From contig JAJYIF010000005.1 in assembly GCA_021790195.1 (NCBI GenBank), positions 72,870-136,869 of the forward strand: a DNA stretch of 64,000 bases, written 5' to 3'. Below are positions 39,403-56,889 of the stretch, one piece after another (within the stretch, counting starts at the first letter, position 1; each line of letters begins with the position of its first letter). This stretch comes from Nitrospirota bacterium (GTDB lineage Bacteria; Nitrospirota; Thermodesulfovibrionia; Thermodesulfovibrionales; UBA9159). The notes under the pieces are model-generated. The model did no database searches, was not told where the DNA came from, and was given only the letters and a program-made list of their open reading frames with translations. A program made the translations under genes and the position numbers.

Positions 39403-39477
<75 letters not shown>

Positions 39478-47979: not shown

Positions 47980-50151
47980 ATGAGATACCCGCTTTACGTC
48001 GCCTTTCTGTGGCACATGCATCAACCCTATTACAAAGACCCCTTCACAGGGATCTACCGCCTTCCCTGGGTGAGACTGCACGGTGTCAAGGACTACTTCG
48101 ATATGGCCGCCAATCTCGAGGAATACCCCGAAATAAGGCAGACCTTCAATCTCGTACCTTCGCTGATCGAGCAGATCATCGACTACACCGATCATAATGC
48201 CGGGGACACTTTTCTGGAGGTCACCCGGAAAAGGGCGGGCGACCTGACCGGCGATGACCGCGCATTTATCCTCGAAAACTTCTTCCTTGCCAACTGGGAC
48301 ACCATGATAAAGCCGTTTCCTCGCTACTACGAATTGCTCTCGAAAAGGGGCTTCACCTATTCCAAGAACGATCTCCACCGCATCGCAAGGTATTTCAGCG
48401 AAGGTGAATTCAGGGACCTTCAGGTGTTTTTCAACCTTGTCTGGATAAGCCCCGTCCTGAGGAAGAGGGACCGGTTCCTGACCGGCCTTCTGGAGAAGGG
48501 AAAGGAATATACCGAGGAAGAAAAAGACATTCTCCTCGATAAACAGTTCGCCACTTTGCGCAATATCATCCCGAAATACAGGGAGCTGAGCGCAAAAAGC
48601 CGTATAGAGCTATCCGCATCCCCTTTTTACCATCCCATACTGCCGCTTCTCTGGGACACGGACACAGCGAAGGCACCGACACCTGACATACGTCTTCCGA
48701 AGAAAAGGTTTTCTTTTCCCGAGGACGCCGGGACCCAGATGAAGACCGCGATCGATTATTTCGAAAAGGTTTTCGGAGCAAGGCCCGCCGGCATGTGGCC
48801 ATCCGAGGGCTCCGTCAGCGAGGACATAGCCCGGGCGGTCCGGGCGGAGGGTATACAGTGGATAGCGTCCGACGAGGACGTGCTCTCGAACTCCATCGGA
48901 GAAGGTCTAAGGGGCCCGTCGGGAAACGCCACGCGTCCTTCCGCTCTGTATTCGGCCTATGATTATTCCGGCCTCTCCATCATATTCAGGGACCACAGGA
49001 TCTCGGATCTCATCGGATTTACATATTCGGGCTGGGAGCCGAAGAGCGCCGCGGACGATCTCATGGGCAAACTGGGCCAAATCCATGACTCCCTGCCGCA
49101 TGATGAGCCGCACATAGTGCCCATAATTCTCGACGGAGAGAACGCCTGGGAATATTACCGGAATAACGGTCACGACTTCTTCTGTCATCTCTACGATGCC
49201 CTTTCGAAGCACAGGAATGTGAAGACGACCACTGTTTCAGGCTACCTTGCCGAGCATCATGGGAGGAAAAAGTTGAGCCGGCTACATGCCGGCTCCTGGA
49301 TCAATGCGAACTTCGATGTCTGGATCGGACACGAGGAGGACAATACCGCGTGGGATTACCTCACAGAGACCCGGGAAGCGCTTGAGGAATTCCTGAAAGA
49401 AAATCCCGGCAAAAAGGCAGATATCGACTGGAAGTCTGTATACGTTGCCGAGGGAAGCGACTGGAACTGGTGGTACGGTGACGAGCATTCCACGGAAAAC
49501 GCCAAGGAATTCGACGAGCTTTTCAGGTTGAATCTCATGAAAGTTTACAAGGACATGGGGAGAGAGGTCCCCCCGTACTTATATGTCCCCGTGCTGAGGG
49601 AGGACAGGGCCGTAGCTCCTTCGATGCAGATCAGGGGCTTCATTCGTCCCAAGATCGACGGGTTTATGACGAGCTATTTCGAGTGGTACCAGGGGGCATA
49701 CGTGGACGTGGCAAAATCAGGGGGGAGCATGCATATGACCGAAGGACTTATATCCAGGATATATTACGGGTTCGACCGTGAGAGCCTTTTCGTGAGGGTC
49801 GATCCCAGAAAGCCCTTCAACGAGTTCCCGGAAGATGCAGTTGTCTCTGTAGAGATCGTCAGGCCCTCCCAGTTCAGGCTGGATATCCTCCTAAGAGACA
49901 ATACGGCAGCAAGACTCCTTCGCGGGGACGACAGCGGCTGGACAATCGCCAGGGAAAGCCCCGATTTTGCAGTCGCCGACATTCTCGAATGCGCCGTGTC
50001 CTTTACGGACATAAATGCGAAAGAACATGACGAGATCAACTTCTTTGTCTCGGTCAGCAGGGGGGAAGAAAAGATCGAGCGCTGTCCCTGGAGGGGCTAT
50101 ATCTCGGTTTCGGTGCCGACCGCTGAATTCGAATCCACTATGTGGTATTGA
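47980..50151 (+). CDS. glycoside hydrolase family 57 enzyme (alpha-glucan-active)
   Basis: 723 aa. N-terminus YVAFLWHMHQPYYKD ... LPWVRLHGVKDYFDM is the GH57 signature region. Confidence 0.88.
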   Translation: MRYPLYVAFLWHMHQPYYKDPFTGIYRLPWVRLHGVKDYFDMAANLEEYPEIRQTFNLVPSLIEQIIDYTDHNAGDTFLEVTRKRAGDLTGDDRAFILENFFLANWDTMIKPFPRYYELLSKRGFTYSKNDLHRIARYFSEGEFRDLQVFFNLVWISPVLRKRDRFLTGLLEKGKEYTEEEKDILLDKQFATLRNIIPKYRELSAKSRIELSASPFYHPILPLLWDTDTAKAPTPDIRLPKKRFSFPEDAGTQMKTAIDYFEKVFGARPAGMWPSEGSVSEDIARAVRAEGIQWIASDEDVLSNSIGEGLRGPSGNATRPSALYSAYDYSGLSIIFRDHRISDLIGFTYSGWEPKSAADDLMGKLGQIHDSLPHDEPHIVPIILDGENAWEYYRNNGHDFFCHLYDALSKHRNVKTTTVSGYLAEHHGRKKLSRLHAGSWINANFDVWIGHEEDNTAWDYLTETREALEEFLKENPGKKADIDWKSVYVAEGSDWNWWYGDEHSTENAKEFDELFRLNLMKVYKDMGREVPPYLYVPVLREDRAVAPSMQIRGFIRPKIDGFMTSYFEWYQGAYVDVAKSGGSMHMTEGLISRIYYGFDRESLFVRVDPRKPFNEFPEDAVVSVEIVRPSQFRLDILLRDNTAARLLRGDDSGWTIARESPDFAVADILECAVSFTDINAKEHDEINFFVSVSRGEEKIERCPWRGYISVSVPTAEFESTMWY

Positions 50152-50246: not shown

Positions 50247-50846
50247 CTAATAGCCCTTCTCATCCGCCCGGCCCTTGAATTTTCCCGTTTCGGCGCGCAA
50301 CAGATCAAGGGTCTCTTTCAATAAATCGCTTTTTTGCGCCGCGACCTCTCTCCTGTCTTTGGCATATTCGAGTATGTCGAGCGTCCTGCCGATAAACTGA
50401 AACCTCTCCTTGAGAAGTGAAAAACTGTTCCTTAGGGTCTCTATCGCGCGATTACATTCTCTGGCCACGTCCTTGAAGTCGTCGTCCCTCCTCAGGTAGA
50501 TATTTACGGACAGGTCTCCCATAGCCGCCTTCTCGACATCCCTCTTAAGTCTGAAAAGCGGACCGGCGGTCCTGCGCATGAGATACAAGAAAAAAAATAG
50601 AAGGGCCAGCAGCGTGATACCGGCGGATAAGACGCCTGTATAGACCAGCTGCGGGGTCACGATGTCGGCTATCGTGTCGGCCTGAATGTGGCTCTTCCAC
50701 CTCAGGGCTTCGAGTTTCCTGTAAGAGAGATAGTTAAAAAGCGTGAGATTGACCAAAAGACCGGCGGCGCATATCGACGCCACCTCCAGGACGGTACGCC
50801 ACTGGTATTTCCTGTCGGTTACATATTGTCTCCTTCTGTTCTTCAT
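50247..50846 (-). CDS. small two-TM membrane protein with a HAMP domain and no recognisable output domain
   Basis: 199 aa. Two hydrophobic segments are separated by about 30 aa, followed by the HAMP-like RRTAGPLFRLKRDVEKAAMGDLSVNIYLRRDDDFKDVARECNRAIETLR and a ~55-aa helical tail. GAGGAG Shine-Dalgarno. Confidence 0.75.
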   Translation of the reverse strand: MKNRRRQYVTDRKYQWRTVLEVASICAAGLLVNLTLFNYLSYRKLEALRWKSHIQADTIADIVTPQLVYTGVLSAGITLLALLFFFLYLMRRTAGPLFRLKRDVEKAAMGDLSVNIYLRRDDDFKDVARECNRAIETLRNSFSLLKERFQFIGRTLDILEYAKDRREVAAQKSDLLKETLDLLRAETGKFKGRADEKGY

Positions 50847-50901
50847 CCTTCTCCTCTTTCCTGATTATCCGTTTCCGGTTAACGCCTTTGCATAGCCGGT
50901 A

Positions 50902-51672
50902 TCACAAGTTGTGGCACCGGATGCAGAGCCTGCTGCCCACGTTACTCATGACAAGGTGGTTCGGAAGACGCGAATAGGCGTCATGGCAGGTCCCGCACCC
51001 TATCCTTCCGCTGAAGAGCCTTATCTTCTTGCCGACACTCGAAAGCGGTTTCAGATTCCCGTCCTTCATCCTGCTCTCCTGATAATCGACGCCGATGGGA
51101 TGGGAGGACGTCTCGTGACGCCAGATGCCTGCCCCGAAATCCGTCAGCTTACCGGCAATCCCGTCGTGACAGCTTATGCATTCCATAGACAGCTGATCAA
51201 GGGGCTGCGAGGAGTCGGTCACCTGGAATCTCGCCGAGAGATGGGCCACTCCAAGTACCGCCCGGTGGCCGCCTTCCGGTATCATTGTCGTATGGCATGA
51301 CAGGCAGAATTCCCTTCCGGTCACCTGTCTTCTCAGAAAGTAGGTCTTTTCTCCGAACTGGGTAAACCTCTCAGCGTGTATGTTGTGGCACGTGACGCAG
51401 GTGAGTTTGCCGTTCTGCAGAACAAAGTCCGGTGGGACCTTCGCGGTCACGGGAATGATACCTACGGGATGCGAAGACTTGCCCGAGAACTTCTTATGGC
51501 ATCTCCTGCAAAGTTCGGTTACCGGAGCGGTCAGGCTCCTTGGGTCCCGCTCGGAATCAATATGGCAATTCCTGCATTCGGAAGGCTCGAATTTGTGCGC
51601 GTTGTCGAATACAGCGTAGCCGAGAATGATTACAGCGGCTATGATTACGGCAACGAGCAGAAGCACCTTCAT
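50902..51672 (-). CDS. membrane-anchored heptaheme c-type cytochrome
   Basis: Seven CxxCH motifs: CRNCH, CRRCH, CVTCH, CLSCH, CISCH, CGTCH, CIRCH. N-terminal hydrophobic anchor MKVLLLVAVIIAAVIILGY. The ATG at 51672 overlaps the upstream stop (ATGA). Confidence 0.85.
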   Translation of the reverse strand: MKVLLLVAVIIAAVIILGYAVFDNAHKFEPSECRNCHIDSERDPRSLTAPVTELCRRCHKKFSGKSSHPVGIIPVTAKVPPDFVLQNGKLTCVTCHNIHAERFTQFGEKTYFLRRQVTGREFCLSCHTTMIPEGGHRAVLGVAHLSARFQVTDSSQPLDQLSMECISCHDGIAGKLTDFGAGIWRHETSSHPIGVDYQESRMKDGNLKPLSSVGKKIRLFSGRIGCGTCHDAYSRLPNHLVMSNVGSRLCIRCHNL

Positions 51673-52241
51673 ACTCTTATCCCGGACAGCCACTTATTTA
51701 CCTCTTCGACCTTCCGGACCATCTTCAGCCGCTTGTCCTCGGCAGCCTCCGCATCTCCGTTTTGTACGAGAAGGCTTAATTCACAGGTGTCCTGATAAAG
51801 CTCGTCTATGGCCTCACAGATGCTCGAATGTCTATCGCGGTATTTTGTCGCAAGCTCGTTCAGCGCGTCGGCAAGAGGCAGCACGGCGTCTTTCTTCCTG
51901 AAGCGCGCAGTCGCATCGAGCCCGCCCTCGGCCATGCGCGCTGCGACCCTTTTGACCCCGACCAGCGGACCGACTACTCTATGGGTGCTGAGAATAATGA
52001 GGGCAACAATCCCGAACAGACAGACCAATGCGAAGAGGCCGTAGATGGACAGGGTGTCTCGGATCAGCTCTGTCTTGAAGTAAAAAGCTGTGGAGACCCT
52101 TTGAGAATACAGTTCGCCGAGTCCCCGGTCTATATAGTGATAAAAGAAGACCGAGTTTACAAGGATCAGCGCAATAAGGAAGAGAGAGATTCCGACAATG
52201 AGCCTGATTCTGAAAGACCTTGAGACCACGTCCAAGTACAT
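51669..52241 (-). CDS. small two-TM membrane protein with a HAMP domain, paralog of 50247-50846
   Basis: Same architecture. HAMP-like HRVVGPLVGVKRVAARMAEGGLDATARFRKKDAVLPLADALNELATKYR. ATG at 52241 with an AAGGAG Shine-Dalgarno; the track GTG at 52256 is less likely. Confidence 0.75.
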   Translation of the reverse strand: MYLDVVSRSFRIRLIVGISLFLIALILVNSVFFYHYIDRGLGELYSQRVSTAFYFKTELIRDTLSIYGLFALVCLFGIVALIILSTHRVVGPLVGVKRVAARMAEGGLDATARFRKKDAVLPLADALNELATKYRDRHSSICEAIDELYQDTCELSLLVQNGDAEAAEDKRLKMVRKVEEVNKWLSGIRV

Positions 52242-52358
52242 AAGTTCTCCTTTCACTAAGGGAGATCTTCCCTCCTTCGCTCTCCGCGCGGAGAATAACT
52301 CCCGCGCTTCAAAAAGAACTTAAGTAAGCCAGCTTGCCGCTCTATACCCCATAACTAA

Positions 52359-52386
52359 AAAATATCACTTTTTCCTTAAGTGTCAA
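52359..52386 (-). promoter_or_regulatory. candidate extended -10 promoter for the HAMP-cytochrome-HAMP operon
   Basis: The minus strand reads TTGACA (52386-52381), a 16-nt spacer ending in TGa, then TATTTT (52364-52359). Confidence 0.45.
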
Positions 52387-52537: not shown

Positions 52538-53251
52538 ATGATTCTTGGCGTCAATATAGACCACGTTGCGACATTGAGAGAAGCCCGCAAAGGGGCCGAT
52601 CCGGAACCTGTCATGGCGGCGACACTCGCGGTCCTCGGCGGAGCCGACGGCATCACCGTGCATCTGAGGGAAGACCGGCGACACATAAACGACAGGGACC
52701 TGAGACTTTTGCGCGAAATGGTTCCGGTTGAACTGAACCTTGAAATGGCCGCTACGGACGAGATGGTCCGCATTGCCCTTGAGGTGAAGCCCGATATGGT
52801 GACTCTTGTGCCCGAAAAGAGACAGGAGCTTACGACAGAAGGCGGTCTTGATGTGTCAGGACAGAAAGAGCACGTCAAAGAAACCGTGAGAAGACTGCAT
52901 GAGTCAGGCATCCCGGTAAGCCTCTTTATCAACCCACGCATAATGGACGTCGATATATCGAGAGAGACGGGGGCCGACATGGTCGAGATCCACACGGGGC
53001 TTTATTCAAACGCAAAAGGTGAAAAGCAGAAGGACGAGCTGCGGCGGGTAGTCGATGCCGTGAAGGTTGCCTGCAAGCTCGAGCTGCTGGCGAACGCCGG
53101 TCACGGACTGAATTATTTCAATGTAAGGAACATTGCGGCTATAGAAGGGATAAGAGGACTTTATATAGGCCACAGCATAATTTCGAGGGCGGTCTTTATA
53201 GGCCTGGAGCGCGCCGTGAGAGAGATGAAGGAATTGATCGCTGTAGTCTGA
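52538..53251 (+). CDS. pdxJ: pyridoxine 5'-phosphate synthase
   Basis: 237 aa. [23 protein letters not shown] and NLEMA ... [19 protein letters not shown]. Confidence 0.95.
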
Positions 53252-53268: not shown

Positions 53269-53393
53269 CTATTTCTTCCTGTCTGTTCGGAACTCTGATG
53301 AACGCCTTCCCTGGGCGGTGTCCAGGATCATAATGGGATCTGCGATGGCGTCGGAAGTCCTTTTCCATTCCTCCTTTGCCTTTATGGTCTCCG
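53269..53393 (-). pseudogene. out-of-frame fossil of a PAS-domain N-cap downstream of the response-regulator stop
   Basis: In the -1/+2 frame relative to the response regulator, my translation reads AAAETIKAKEEWKRTSDAIADPIMILDTAQGRRSSEFRTDRKK then stop (tag at 53271-53269). The W..T.DAI.DPIMILD pattern is a typical PAS N-terminus. Confidence 0.45.
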
Positions 53394-53900
53394 CCGCCGC
53401 CTGCTGCGCGTGGCGATCTCTTTTTCACGCTCTGCTATCTTTTCCTCCAATTTGGCGGCCACCACCTCGCCGTACCTCTTCAGATACTCCTCCTCTTCAG
53501 TGATGAGTTCCGGAGTAATAGCCTTTCCCTTCCTTTGTTCGCGGAGGATTATTTCCACCTCGTCCCAGAAATCAGCAGGCTCTTTCGGCTTGATGATATA
53601 AGCTTCTGCTCCGAGCGCGATGGCGAGGTCCACGTCTTTGTCCGCCCTGTAAATGGCCGAGTAAAAGATAAAGGGGACAGTCTTAAGTTTCTCGTCTTCC
53701 TTTACCGCCCTCAGAAACTGAAAGCCGTCCATGATCGGCATAAGCGCGTCCGAGATTATTAGGTCCGGGGAATGGATCCTGGCCATCCTGAGACCGTCCA
53801 GCCCGTCTTCGGCTTCCACCGCTTCATGGCCTTTGTTCTCGATGATGTATCGGAGCAGCCTTCTGTCGTCGCCGTTGTCGTCGACAATCAGGATCTTCAT
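53382..53900 (-). CDS. response regulator: receiver domain plus a truncated coiled-coil linker
   Basis: MKILIVDDNGDDRRLL ... DLIISDALMPIMDGF ... PFIFYSA is a CheY-like REC. The tail EEYLKRYGEVVAAKLEEKIAEREKEIA resembles REC-to-PAS linkers and ends in RSRRRRRP, encoded by a CGG repeat. Confidence 0.88.
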   Translation of the reverse strand: MKILIVDDNGDDRRLLRYIIENKGHEAVEAEDGLDGLRMARIHSPDLIISDALMPIMDGFQFLRAVKEDEKLKTVPFIFYSAIYRADKDVDLAIALGAEAYIIKPKEPADFWDEVEIILREQRKGKAITPELITEEEEYLKRYGEVVAAKLEEKIAEREKEIATRSRRRRRP

Positions 53901-54271
53901 TTCTTCGGCGCCTCAAGGATCTTGCTTATCTGTTCCACGATGGTCAGCGGGTCTATCGGTTTTTCGAAATAACCGTCGCAGCCGGCAGACAATATCTTCT
54001 CCATGTCGCCGCGCATAGCGTATGACGTGATCGCTATGATAGGGATGCGGCCGTCAGCCTCGGAATTCCTTACCCTGCGTGTCGCCTCAAGACCGTCTAT
54101 GCCGGGAAGGTTGATATCCATAAGGATAAAGCTGGGCTTCTCTTTAATCGCCAGTTCGACACCCTCTTCCCCTGTCCCGGCCGAAATCACCTCGTAACCT
54201 CCTCTCCTTAAGGCATAGGATATAAGGTCGAGATTGTCCTTGTTGTCTTCCACCACGAGCACCTTCTTCAT
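53897..54271 (-). CDS. single-domain CheY-like response regulator
   Basis: 124 aa. KVLVVEDNKDNLDL ... ILMDINLPGIDGLE ... PIIAITSYAMRGD. Confidence 0.9.
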   Translation of the reverse strand: MKKVLVVEDNKDNLDLISYALRRGGYEVISAGTGEEGVELAIKEKPSFILMDINLPGIDGLEATRRVRNSEADGRIPIIAITSYAMRGDMEKILSAGCDGYFEKPIDPLTIVEQISKILEAPKK

Positions 54272-56889
54272 CTCTTCTCCCCTTTTCTTAACTTTGCCGG
54301 AATCCGTAGGCAGAAAGAACTTCCCTCTCCAAATTCGCTTTGCACGGTTATGTCGCCCAGCAGAATTTCTGTCGCGATTTTCTTCACAAGATAAAGACCC
54401 AGACCGGTCCCTCTTACCTTCGCGCTGAGAGGTGAAGGGATGCGCGTAAAGGCCGAAAAGAGTTTCGGAAGGTCTTCCTTTTTCATACCTATACCGGTAT
54501 CGGAAACGATGATTTCAACAATGTCCGGGGCTGTCAACCCTTTGCTGCTCTTCACAAGATTGATCCTTATCTCGATCCGTCCCCGTTCCGTAAACTTGAG
54601 GGCGTTGCTTAAGAGGTTCATCAGGCACTGAAGGAGCCTTCGTCTGTCATTGCTCATTTCGAAATGCGGAGATTCGACCTGCAGCTCAAGGCCCTTTTCT
54701 TCTATCTCTTTTCTAAACATCGACACCCCGTCTTCAATCAAACAGCCCAGGTCAAAATCTTCCAGCAGGATTTCATGTTTCCCAGCCTCGATCTTGGAGA
54801 TATCGATGACATCGTTGATAAGGGAGAGAAGGTGCCTGCCGGACCTCAGGACCGCCGAAAGGTTCTTTTTCTGTTCGTCATTGAGAGGCCCAGTCCACTC
54901 CTCGAGAGTGATGCTCGAAAAACCGATAATCGAATTCAGGGGAGTCCGAAGCTCGTGGCTCATCGAGGCTATGAACAGCGACTTGAGCTGGTCAAGCTCC
55001 TTCAGCTTATTATTTGCCTCTTCCAACTCCCCGCTTTTCTTCTGCAGCTCTGCGGTCCTCGCAGCTACCCTCTGCTCGAGCCTCTCGTTGAGTGCCCGGA
55101 TTTCTTCTTCGGCCTTCTTGTGCTCGGTGACGTCCCCGAAGACAACCACCGCGCCTGTTATCTTGCCGTCCTCGACAAGAGGCGAATTGACATGCTCCAC
55201 GTCAAACCTGCTTCCGTCCCTTCTCCAGAAGACCTCTTCCCGGCCCCTGCGCACTTCGCCCTCCGTGAGGGACCTGTGAAGCGGACACTCCTCCACAGGA
55301 TACGAACGGCCGTCTGCTTTCGTATGATGGAAGAGCTGGTGGCTTTTCGCGCCTATGAGCTCCTTGACACCGTATCCGAGCATCTCCGCAGCGGCGGGGT
55401 TTATAAACACGATGCTCCCGTCTACATCCGTGCCGTATATTCCCTCTCCGGCCGAATTCAGGATCATCTCATTCCGCTGGCTCAGTCTCATCAGCTCCTC
55501 CTCCGCGAGCCTGCCCTCGGTGATGTCGCGCGCAGTGGCATATGTAAGTCCGTCGGCCCTGTTATAGTAGGCCCTCCACGACAGCCACCGAAGCGACCCG
55601 TCCTTGCACACATAGCGGTTTTCAAAATTGAGGGAAAAGCCCCTCTGCAGCTGACGGACCATTTCTTCAATCGTAGACTGCTTGTCGTCCGGGTAGACAA
55701 AATCGATGAACGGCTTTGCCACAAGCTCCGACTCCGAATATCCGAGCGTCTCCGTGCAAGCGGGGTTCACCTTCATAAAAGCGCCGTTAGGATCGGCTAT
55801 GACCATCAGGTCGCTTGAGTTCTGAAATAGCTTGAAATACTGTTCCCTTTCCGCCTCCGCCTTTCTGCGCTCCGTGATATCACGGGCCGCGGCAAAGACT
55901 CCGAGGACGTCCCCCGCTTCGTTTTTATAAACCGAGGCATTGTAGAGGACCGGCCTTGTAGATCCATCGCGATTCTTGATCTCCAGAGGATAATCACGGA
56001 CAGCGCCCTCCCTGAACACCTGCTGGTAACCTGCCCTTGCCTTCCCGGCTTCTGTGAAGTAGTCAGAAAAATCCGTACCGATAAGCTCCGCCCTCGTGCG
56101 ACCGGTCACCTTCTCCGTGGCTGCGTTCACATCAGTGATCTTGCCGTCCGCGTCGATTGTGACGAGTGGATCAAGACTTGCTTCGATCAAGCTGCGGTTG
56201 TAAGAACCCGCAGCCTTCAAATCTGTCTGGTAGCTCCTGATCGTGTCCCTCATACTGCTGAAACTATTTACGAGCGTCCCGACCTCGTCGTTTCTCCTCT
56301 TAGGCATAGCCGCGGAAAAATCGCCTCTGGCAAGACTCCTAGCCGCATGGGCCAAGAGGTTGACCGGCCTTACCGCGGCCCAGTCGAGAATAAAGCTTGC
56401 GGCTATAACATATCCGACTATGATAATCAGCATGATGGTTATGAGTTCCAAGTGACGTTTTCTTATTGCCGATAGTCTGGGAGCGAAATCGACGTCCACG
56501 ACAAGCCTTCCCAGGTGCATGTCGAGATAGTCGATCTGCTTTTCTATAATGCGGATATCACTCACGGTTCCGCTCCGGACCGCTGGCGGAGGAGTCTTTA
56601 GGGGATAGATCATCCTGCCTTTATCGTCGAATAAGCGCACACTCACCCAGTCCGTGTTTCTTTTTCTCAAGGTATCCAGATCCCCATAAACAGTGTCAAG
56701 CTGCCGGGCAAGCAACAACGGGACCAACGCTTCTGCCACACTGTCTATGTGCCGCTCAGCAGATATCCTGTATTTATCCTCGATATTTGCAAGCGAACTC
56801 GGCATCCAATATCCATAGAGATAAGCCAGCAGGAGCAGACTCAGGGAAACAAGCGGCAGTAATACCTTTATACGCAGGCCAGCGACCAT
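54268..56889 (-). CDS. membrane sensor histidine kinase (periplasmic domain, HAMP, three PAS, HisKA, HATPase_c)
   Basis: 873 aa with two membrane segments flanking about 125 aa. HAMP region LAHAARSLARGDFS. Three PAS N-caps: SLIEASLDPLVTIDADGKI, FQNSSDLMVIADPNGAF, ILNSAGEGIYGTDVDGSI. H-box SHELRTPLNSIIGFS. G-boxes DTGIGM and GTGLGL. Confidence 0.92.
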   Translation of the reverse strand: MVAGLRIKVLLPLVSLSLLLLAYLYGYWMPSSLANIEDKYRISAERHIDSVAEALVPLLLARQLDTVYGDLDTLRKRNTDWVSVRLFDDKGRMIYPLKTPPPAVRSGTVSDIRIIEKQIDYLDMHLGRLVVDVDFAPRLSAIRKRHLELITIMLIIIVGYVIAASFILDWAAVRPVNLLAHAARSLARGDFSAAMPKRRNDEVGTLVNSFSSMRDTIRSYQTDLKAAGSYNRSLIEASLDPLVTIDADGKITDVNAATEKVTGRTRAELIGTDFSDYFTEAGKARAGYQQVFREGAVRDYPLEIKNRDGSTRPVLYNASVYKNEAGDVLGVFAAARDITERRKAEAEREQYFKLFQNSSDLMVIADPNGAFMKVNPACTETLGYSESELVAKPFIDFVYPDDKQSTIEEMVRQLQRGFSLNFENRYVCKDGSLRWLSWRAYYNRADGLTYATARDITEGRLAEEELMRLSQRNEMILNSAGEGIYGTDVDGSIVFINPAAAEMLGYGVKELIGAKSHQLFHHTKADGRSYPVEECPLHRSLTEGEVRRGREEVFWRRDGSRFDVEHVNSPLVEDGKITGAVVVFGDVTEHKKAEEEIRALNERLEQRVAARTAELQKKSGELEEANNKLKELDQLKSLFIASMSHELRTPLNSIIGFSSITLEEWTGPLNDEQKKNLSAVLRSGRHLLSLINDVIDISKIEAGKHEILLEDFDLGCLIEDGVSMFRKEIEEKGLELQVESPHFEMSNDRRRLLQCLMNLLSNALKFTERGRIEIRINLVKSSKGLTAPDIVEIIVSDTGIGMKKEDLPKLFSAFTRIPSPLSAKVRGTGLGLYLVKKIATEILLGDITVQSEFGEGSSFCLRIPAKLRKGEKR

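Follow-up and report, generated by a model that had tools for sequence, protein, structure and literature searches.

Two output-less HAMP paralogs around a heptaheme cytochrome c: a conserved three-gene module and candidate redox sensor

What does a HAMP protein do when it has no output domain to drive? To our knowledge the HAMP domain is known only as a signal converter between the input and output modules of transmembrane receptors. The question is raised by a locus in a 64,000-nucleotide stretch of a Nitrospirota genome (assembly GCA_021790195.1, contig JAJYIF010000005.1, positions 72,870 to 136,869; hereafter the window), in which three genes run in the same direction on the minus strand: a small HAMP protein (A), a c-type cytochrome with seven hemes, and a second small HAMP protein (C). 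An earlier note on this DNA, made from the sequence alone, had described a compact operon in which a heptaheme cytochrome is bracketed by two output-less HAMP paralogs, and had named the cytochrome as their candidate sensing or electron-transfer partner. Our analysis supports the operon, and the fixed gene order, the stop/start overlap and the co-divergence of the three proteins strongly support the cytochrome as the candidate partner. The three genes are conserved as a translationally coupled module whose members have diverged together. The reading we favour, at a probability of roughly 0.45, is that the triad is a 'split' multiheme redox sensor, in which a heterodimer of A and C would act as the transducer from periplasm to cytoplasm.

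A conserved three-gene module

When the genes were called again, the coordinates, protein lengths, overlap, intergenic gap and heme count reported earlier all proved right. Gene A (51669..52241, minus strand) begins at an ATG at 52241, with the Shine-Dalgarno sequence AAAGGAG 5 nt before it, and encodes a mini-HAMP protein of 190 residues. The cytochrome gene (50902..51672, minus strand) encodes 256 residues with seven CxxCH motifs, and its ATG at 51672 shares nucleotides with the TGA of gene A (ATGA). Gene C (50247..50846, minus strand, ATG at 50846) follows after a gap of 55 nt, is preceded by GAGGAG, and encodes the 199-residue mini-HAMP paralog of A. The genes on either side of the triad, pdxJ (52538-53251) and a GH57 gene (47980-50151), both lie on the plus strand.

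A scan of one genome per species identified relatives of the cytochrome in 299 species genomes, and the 80 best loci were analysed. These are mostly from Nitrospirota/Thermodesulfovibrionia, with further loci from Desulfobulbia, Desulfurivibrio, Candidatus (Ca.) Sulfobium and Aminicenantes, and the source environments include aquifers, deep mines and ocean crust. Many of the organisms that keep the gene order are sulfur-cycling anaerobes of the subsurface. Loci were scored with hidden Markov models built of A and C, and were regarded as testable where there was enough sequence on the side in question. An A-type gene was present upstream in 74/78 testable loci and a C-type gene downstream in 74/79. 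The automated rule detected the complete order A-cytochrome-C in 68/74 loci, all from different species; inspection of L020 and L060 raised this to 70/74. In L060 the open reading frame of the cytochrome had been over-extended, and in L020 a gene for 135 residues (L020:5858-6265) sits between the cytochrome and C. By eye, the N-terminus of this inserted protein resembles DUF559-type endonuclease proteins. Only a remnant of C was seen in L078. Three loci (L056, L081, and L088) carry a seven-heme homologue without HAMP genes, beside 13-heme and/or 4-heme proteins (4-heme only in L088). Because the cytochrome stands alone in these three, the HAMP pair is an accessory of the cytochrome and not a requirement.

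The positions of the two HAMP genes were not interchangeable: the A model always scored best for the upstream copy and the C model for the downstream copy. Overlap of the A stop codon and the cytochrome start codon (ATGA or GTGA) was found in 53/71 loci; C follows the cytochrome at a median distance of 14 nt. Distance matrices of the three proteins were correlated (r = 0.92 for A vs. C, 0.87 for A vs. cytochrome, and 0.84 for C vs. cytochrome; Mantel test, 0/999 permutations). The HAMP proteins evolve faster than the cytochrome, with a mean identity of 28-31% vs. 44%. A relative with 79% identity (L001) has kept the triad next to a different upstream gene, which encodes a protein with response regulator (RR), PAS, GAF and HD-GYP domains (RR-PAS-GAF-HD-GYP). 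Four cytochrome homologues with 52, 48, 42 and 40% identity each lie between a protein of ~190 residues and one of ~190-200 residues, and look-ups begun from A-family proteins, down to 20% identity, revealed the triad in 5/6 cases. At L094:357-1480 an A-type gene is directly followed by a C-type gene, with overlapping stop and start codons and no cytochrome between them. The L094 contig is short (1.7 kb), with mnmA downstream.

The HAMP proteins A and C

In A, a cytoplasmic N-terminus is followed by a first transmembrane helix (TM1, ~residues 12-34), a periplasmic stub (~35-62), a second transmembrane helix (TM2, ~63-85), the HAMP domain (~86-137) and a C-terminal helical hairpin (138-190). 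C has TM1 at ~residues 18-40, a periplasmic stub at ~41-65, TM2 at ~66-90, HAMP at ~89-142 and a helical tail reaching residue 199. The periplasmic loops are thus ~28 residues long in A and ~25 in C, and the post-HAMP tail comprises only ~55 residues. The HAMP domain of A (residues 86-137; 51831..51986, minus strand) reads HRVVGPL..(AS1)..GGL..connector..RKKDAVLPLADALNEL (AS2), and that of C (residues 89-142; 50421..50582, minus strand) reads GPLFRLKRDVEKAAMGDL...LRRDDDFKDVARECNRAI. Both show the HAMP layout: an AS1 segment with a proline, a connector that begins with glycine, and an AS2 segment, placed right after the last transmembrane helix.

The Pfam HAMP model (PF00672) matched the window copies below its gathering score of 25, with 17.7 bits over residues 86-132 of A and 16.3 bits over residues 89-139 of C. 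The families do match HAMP profiles, though the window copies fall under the cut-off: at E <= 0.01, 23/50 aligned members of the A family individually matched HAMP (best E 3e-7), and among 42 members of the C family 22 matched HAMP and 10 matched HAMP_2 (best E 2e-8). The family consensuses, HRVAGPLxR...GxxxxxxxFRxxDxIHPLADxLN for A and GPLxRxxxDxxxxxxGDLxxxIxLRxxDEFKDxAxExNxM for C, contain the canonical HAMP signature, namely a proline in AS1, G-D-L ahead of the connector, and DEFKDxAxExNxM in AS2. A profile of A aligned with the TM2-HAMP region of the chemoreceptors PcaY and Tsr and with the Af1503 HAMP domain in the PDB. The shared pattern GPL..KR..G.L..R..D that had first linked A with C is real and corresponds to the AS1/connector signature of HAMP; the spacer from KR to G.L is, however, 7 residues long and not 6 as first given.

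The AlphaFold 2 model of A (pLDDT, the predicted local distance difference test, 90.4) has a helix at residues 8-37 that represents TM1, a long helix at 45-104 that combines a periplasmic extension, TM2 and AS1, a connector at 105-120, a helix at 121-160 that contains AS2 and its extension, a conserved G-D turn, and a return helix at 164-186. Since the helices 121-160 and 164-186 fold back on each other, the post-HAMP region of A is a short antiparallel hairpin, and in a dimer such hairpins would make a small four-helix bundle. Foldseek searches with the A model gave nothing significant; the top matches were WalK, the Aer2 poly-HAMP and CpxA, all with E > 0.6.

The sub-threshold scores of the window copies and the lack of a significant fold match for A would agree with A and C being generic small membrane proteins, for example in cytochrome maturation or chaperoning, whose HAMP-like region is a mere coiled-coil scaffold. 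One locus (L007), where the triad adjoins the cytochrome-maturation genes ResB and CcsA, points the same way. Against this stand the canonical signature in the family consensus (proline in AS1, GDL, DEFxxxAxxxNxM) and the individual matches of about half of the members to HAMP or HAMP_2, and a maturation-gene neighbourhood was seen in that one locus only. We consider this the least probable of the explanations weighed here.

A and C are paralogs, as had been proposed from their shared pattern. BLASTP aligned them with 24% identity (E 7e-5), and alignment of the two family profiles by hhalign covered 188 columns with a probability of 99.6% (E 1.4e-24), which makes them paralogs over their full length. 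C has in addition a conserved cytoplasmic N-terminal motif, RRxYFxDKxxQxRF or, more loosely, RRxY(F/V)xDxxxQxR, in which Q15 is invariant, and both families tend to end in (I/F)-(K/R)-(L/V). No conserved polar or ligand residues were found in the transmembrane helices of A and C. With so few conserved transmembrane residues the two proteins are typical of transducers and not of catalytic subunits.

The claim that neither protein carries an output domain was borne out. Domain searches of the window proteins and 92 family members revealed no kinase, MCP-signal, cyclase or other output domain. Membership of the methyl-accepting chemotaxis proteins (MCPs) was rejected, since MCPsignal (PF00015) was absent from all of these proteins, and a sensor histidine kinase was rejected, since neither HisKA/DHp nor HATPase_c was present. 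NCBIfam models of kinases and chemoreceptors matched the TM2-HAMP stretch only, and the kinase scores were far under their cut-offs. Homologues are publicly named 'methyl-accepting chemotaxis protein' or 'hypothetical'; for the A and C homologues the former name is not supported.

The two proteins might also be fragments of a longer sensor gene that has been disrupted. A HMMER search with A gave 729 cluster representatives at E <= 1e-3, 77 of them at E <= 1e-10, and among the best 150 of the 729 nearly all are 182-207 residues long. Because nearly the whole family has a uniform length of 185-200 residues, A and C are not pieces of a broken sensor, and this reading was rejected. There is a separate group of stand-alone mini-HAMP proteins of 150-165 residues in non-cytochrome contexts (e.g. 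L092:4001-4498 and L093:4001-4495), and one gene of this group adjoins a SurA_N-like lipoprotein and LptF/LptG. Output-less mini-HAMP proteins may therefore be a broader phenomenon.

The cytochrome and its surroundings

The seven CxxCH motifs of the window cytochrome are CRNCH, CRRCH, CVTCH, CLSCH, CISCH, CGTCH and CIRCH. Pfam scores were well above the cut-offs (given in brackets) for Paired_CXXCH_1 at 52.1 bits (20.6), Cytochrome_C7 at 41.2 bits (24.8) and Cytochrom_c3_2 at 40.4 bits (25), so that by motifs and profiles the protein is predicted to belong to the multiheme c-type cytochromes (class III / Paired_CXXCH_1). All seven CxxCH motifs are invariant in 66 aligned homologues, as are seven further histidines (H26, H68, H99, H136, H144, H186, and H191). 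With seven motifs and seven further invariant histidines, all seven hemes can be bis-His ligated, and bis-His ligation is the usual state of electron-transfer hemes. A word-indexed protein search retrieved 250 homologues, mostly named 'cytochrome c3 family protein' and mostly from metagenome-assembled genomes of Nitrospirae, Thermodesulfovibrionales and Thermodesulfobacteriota.

The cytochrome consists of an N-terminal hydrophobic segment (residues 1-20), an N-terminal module with four hemes and an OmcE-like C-terminal module with three. The four-heme half is paralogous to a small 4-heme protein found after the triad in many genomes. In a profile search of the PDB, the three-heme half matched OmcE of D. 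soudanensis (9yuq, E 4.8e-9 over residues 165-260) and OmcE 7tfs (E 2.5e-6). The AlphaFold 2 model of the cytochrome has a pLDDT of 78, and its only near-match in Foldseek was OmcE (7tfs), which was not significant (E 0.44, TM score 0.29-0.35). Known OmcE clusters comprise two multiheme cytochromes, two beta-propeller lipoproteins, OmcE and a large beta-barrel protein, and no HAMP proteins (10.1101/2025.10.22.684050). Membership of the OmcE-type nanowires was rejected: the homology is confined to the C-terminal ~95 residues, there are seven hemes, and conservation around the triad does not extend to the hallmark neighbours. What the triad has in common with the OmcE cluster is a heme module; as systems the two differ.

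The shared module nonetheless raises a further explanation, in which the triad would build or tether a cytochrome polymer. The heptaheme protein would then serve as the cell-bound base or as the polymerising unit of an OmcE-like heme wire, whose assembly the HAMP pair would control or template. The profile matches to OmcE, the position of 7tfs at the top of the Foldseek results, an invariant histidine five residues past a possible signal-peptidase site, as in the mature N-terminus of OmcE, and the paralogous 4-heme protein after the triad in many loci all agree with this. The large beta-barrel and beta-propeller lipoprotein genes, however, lie outside the conserved neighbourhood, the fold match is not significant, seven hemes and seven extra histidines can be satisfied within one chain, and no known nanowire system has HAMP proteins. 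We regard a polymer as quite improbable.

Membership of the NapC/NirT/NrfH family was likewise rejected, with scores of 11.5 bits for PF03264 (cut-off 24.1) and 27.2 bits for TIGR03153 (cut-off 134.2); the latter, a weak match to NrfH, covers residues 5-59. The uncharged N-terminal run of the cytochrome has a median length of 19 residues in homologues. A motif [V/A/G]-[Y/F]-[S/A/C/T/G] is present in 69/69 homologues and in 62 of them ends exactly five residues before an invariant histidine. Because this motif fits the -3/-1 rule for signal peptidase I, a cleaved signal peptide is plausible, and we judge an N-terminal anchor and a cleaved signal peptide about equally likely. The cytochrome had been called membrane-anchored in the earlier note; the hydrophobic N-terminus does not establish this, since it fits a cleaved signal peptide equally well.

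Three architectures were observed around the triad: (i) the triad alone, which is how the window and the rest of its clade have it; (ii) 13-heme, A, 7-heme, C, 4-heme, seen in many Nitrospirota; and (iii) 12-heme, 11-heme, 5-heme lipoprotein, 5-heme, A, 7-heme, C, 4-heme, in Desulfobulbia-type genomes. Cytochrome genes are still enriched 3-4 genes away from the triad. A protein of ~690 residues with an Lcl_C domain often follows the 4-heme gene (L009:7115-9199, L052:6980-9046, and 7 other Desulfobulbia-type loci). In loci from four closely related Thermodesulfovibrionia genomes (L011, L012, L016, and L018) the triad lies inside the dsr operon on a single strand, e.g. L012:1659-10766, in the order dsrA-dsrB-dsrD-[A-cytochrome-C]-dsrN-DVU0298 family-dsrC-x-dsrM. 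These four loci are among the nearest relatives of the window cytochrome, and since their DsrA proteins are 91-97% identical the insertion was probably a single evolutionary event. The linkage hints at a connection to sulfite or sulfate respiration. No dsr genes were detected in the window by tblastn.

It is on surroundings of this kind that the main competing reading builds, namely an electron-transfer complex in which A and C serve as membrane subunits, either structural or regulatory. Electrons would enter or leave a periplasmic heme chain at the inner membrane through the heptaheme protein, which would act as a quinol- or cytochrome-pool-linked oxidoreductase, with the HAMP pair either holding it in place or gating the flow of electrons from the cytoplasmic side (inside-out control). 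Consistent with this, all hemes can be bis-His, many lineages have large multiheme neighbours (13 + 4 or 12 + 11 + 5 + 5 + 4 hemes) in clusters with no predicted integral membrane protein other than A and C, one clade has the triad between dsrD and dsrN, upstream of dsrC and dsrM, and the N-terminus and first hemes show a weak likeness to NrfH (TIGR03153, 27 bits). On the other hand, the NapC/NirT and NrfH models score far under cut-off, A and C have no conserved quinone-site-like or polar transmembrane residues, no electron-transfer function is known for a HAMP domain with a cytoplasmic hairpin, L056, L081 and L088 have the cytochrome without A and C, and the N-terminus of the cytochrome may be cleaved, which would make it soluble. 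We hold an electron-transfer complex to be rather unlikely.

Signalling genes adjoin the triad in some genomes. Small stand-alone PilZ genes, in some cases a tandem pair, immediately precede A in the same direction at L044:146-433, L059:4012-4302, L080:3725-4305 and L085:3973-4263. The gene at L068:4120-4404 resembles these and has no Pfam match. Single-domain response regulators adjoin the triad co-directionally in L019 and L070, and RR-HD-GYP proteins flank it in L001 and L019. The PilZ and RR-HD-GYP neighbours suggest a possible connection to cyclic di-GMP (c-di-GMP). Response_reg domains were found in 11/122 adjacent genes (9%) vs. 5/140 control genes (3.6%) 3-4 positions away, and this difference was too weak to accept a conserved signalling neighbour. 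In the window, a region upstream of the triad on the same strand (53382-56889, minus) encodes a HAMP-PAS-PAS histidine kinase of 873 residues and two single-domain response regulators (124 and 172 residues), separated from the triad by pdxJ. The 124-residue regulator is similar to the ones that immediately precede gene A in L019 and L070, and the linkage to these kinase and regulator genes is not kept in the closest relative, L001.

Two signals had also been proposed upstream of gene A. The promoter-like site, TTGACA and the extended -10 box TGaTATTTT with a 16-nt spacer (52359..52386, minus strand), is indeed present, matches 10/12 positions plus the TG, and is the best promoter-like match in the region; its boxes are partly kept in L001 (TTGAAT ... 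TATGCT). The number of promoter-like sites in the region, 3 vs. 1.9 +/- 1.5 in shuffles, is however not above chance, and we regard the promoter as plausible but unproven. The perfect 14-bp palindrome TCTCCGCGCGGAGA in the 5' leader (52281..52294) is exact and unique in the window. As a signal it did not hold: the ~70-nt leader segment that contains it is absent from L001, and simple probability predicts ~4 perfect palindromes of 14 bp per 64 kb. The palindrome should therefore not count as a signal and is probably incidental. In a predicted fold of the leader (52242-52352, minus strand), AAGUUCUUUUU pairs with AAAGGAGAACUU, a stretch that contains the ribosome-binding site of gene A. This fold is unremarkable (z -1.6) and not conserved in L001, and the leader gave no Rfam match. 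On these grounds the palindrome and leader were not supported as a regulatory RNA or operator. The sole Rfam match at gathering threshold in the window is a tRNA gene (39403-39474, plus strand).

A split sensor and its precedents

The favoured reading, a split redox sensor, could work as follows. A and C would pair as a heterodimer with a four-helix transmembrane bundle, a four-helix HAMP bundle and a short cytoplasmic bundle formed from their two hairpins. The cytochrome would dock on the short periplasmic stubs of A and C, or, should its N-terminus be retained, on their transmembrane helices. Exchange with the periplasmic cytochrome pool or, in other lineages, with the larger neighbouring cytochromes would set the oxidation state of the cytochrome and so alter its contact with A and C, and the HAMP domains would turn this change into a rearranged cytoplasmic bundle. 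The bundle itself would perform no catalysis and may bind or release an unlinked partner, e.g. a response regulator, a kinase, or a PilZ / c-di-GMP protein. We count in favour of a sensor the fixed gene order, translational coupling, co-divergence, the HAMP identity of A and C, the low conservation of their transmembrane helices and the role of the HAMP pair as an accessory of the cytochrome, together with the occasional PilZ, response-regulator and RR-HD-GYP neighbours. From these features we infer sensing rather than electron conduction. A heteromer of A and C fits, because two old paralogs are both kept in fixed order and are adjacent and overlapping in L094.

Several observations weigh against a sensor. 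The cytochrome has no obvious sensing heme, and its histidine pattern agrees with plain electron transfer by low-spin hemes. Its relatives in other lineages lie among 24-44 hemes' worth of other cytochromes, as in a conduit. No output partner is consistently encoded near the triad, and the excess of Response_reg among adjacent genes is not significant because the loci are related. When we looked for proteins that join the N-terminal module of C to an output domain, only short proteins came up. It is also from genetics only that we infer the A/C heterodimer. A bolder version of the proposal is that A and C form an obligate heterodimeric transducer without output, a stoichiometric partner of the cytochrome, and together an unrecognised class of 'electron-flux sensor' or cytoplasm-controlled gate that would sequester or release an unlinked partner and be wired into the dsr operon in one clade; this we find doubtful.

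In the literature on HAMP with heptaheme, multiheme, OmcE, cable bacteria and dsr we found no published description of the triad, in line with the earlier note, which did not recognise a described system. Database names for the triad proteins are generic or wrong. The parts are of known kinds, and it is their combination, an output-less paralogous HAMP pair around a multiheme cytochrome across phyla, that looks new; we know of no earlier case of a conserved paralogous output-less HAMP pair. For anaerobes that respire through periplasmic and extracellular multiheme cytochromes, studies of how the redox state or electron flux of these heme chains is monitored have been limited to a handful of sensor domains with one heme each, fused to chemoreceptors or kinases. 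The triad would be a compact, testable three-gene candidate for such monitoring, and its output-less pair bears on HAMP signalling without a downstream catalytic domain. If the bolder version is right, the periplasmic heme networks of subsurface bacteria that cycle sulfur would have such a heterodimeric transducer as an integral part.

Compared with known cytochrome systems, the likeness to OmcE lies in the final ~95 residues, which contain hemes 5-7 (CISCHDG...HPIG.DY...GCGTCHD.YS...LC..CH) and are homologous to the C-terminal part of OmcE, and in a histidine soon after the N-terminal hydrophobic segment in both. OmcE has four hemes, whereas the cytochrome has seven with an extra N-terminal 4-heme module, and no beta-barrel or beta-propeller gene is conserved around the triad, unlike in OmcE clusters. 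With NapC/NirT/NrfH/CymA the cytochrome shares an N-terminal hydrophobic helix and a first CxxCH within ~12 residues; it differs in scores far under the cut-offs, in its seven hemes and in an N-terminus that is maybe cleaved.

Among sensors, DcrA of Desulfovibrio and the Geobacter MCPs GSU0582 and GSU0935 pass a redox or ligand input from a periplasmic c-heme to a HAMP transmembrane transducer in anaerobic reducers of sulfate and metals, and they are the best precedents for c-heme input. They hold sensor, HAMP and output in one chain, with a single heme in a PAS-like fold, whereas the triad has seven potentially bis-His hemes on a separate protein and no output domain. BceS with BceAB and WalK with YycH/YycI are intramembrane-sensing, minimal-loop sensors that depend on accessory proteins and read a separate envelope protein near the membrane, and a WalK-YycH model was the top, non-significant Foldseek match of A. 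Unlike A and C, which have neither, they carry the DHp and catalytic domains of histidine kinases and have a cognate regulator.

Sensory rhodopsin and its transducer Htr (NpSRII-NpHtrII) come closer in layout, and Htr chains were among the weak PDB profile matches of A. Htr ends in a full MCP signalling domain that controls CheA, whereas A and C end after a ~55-residue hairpin; its partner is a retinal protein and it forms a homodimer, in contrast to the multiheme cytochrome and two paralogous transducers of the triad. Like A and C, Htr has two transmembrane helices, almost no loop and a HAMP domain right after TM2, and it has no ligand-binding domain of its own and takes its signal from a separately encoded partner, as we propose for A and C. 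We place the triad with accessory-protein-dependent transmembrane sensing, with a real chance of something more distinct; among loop-less HAMP transducers that take their drive from a separately encoded partner, sensory rhodopsin/Htr is the best precedent.

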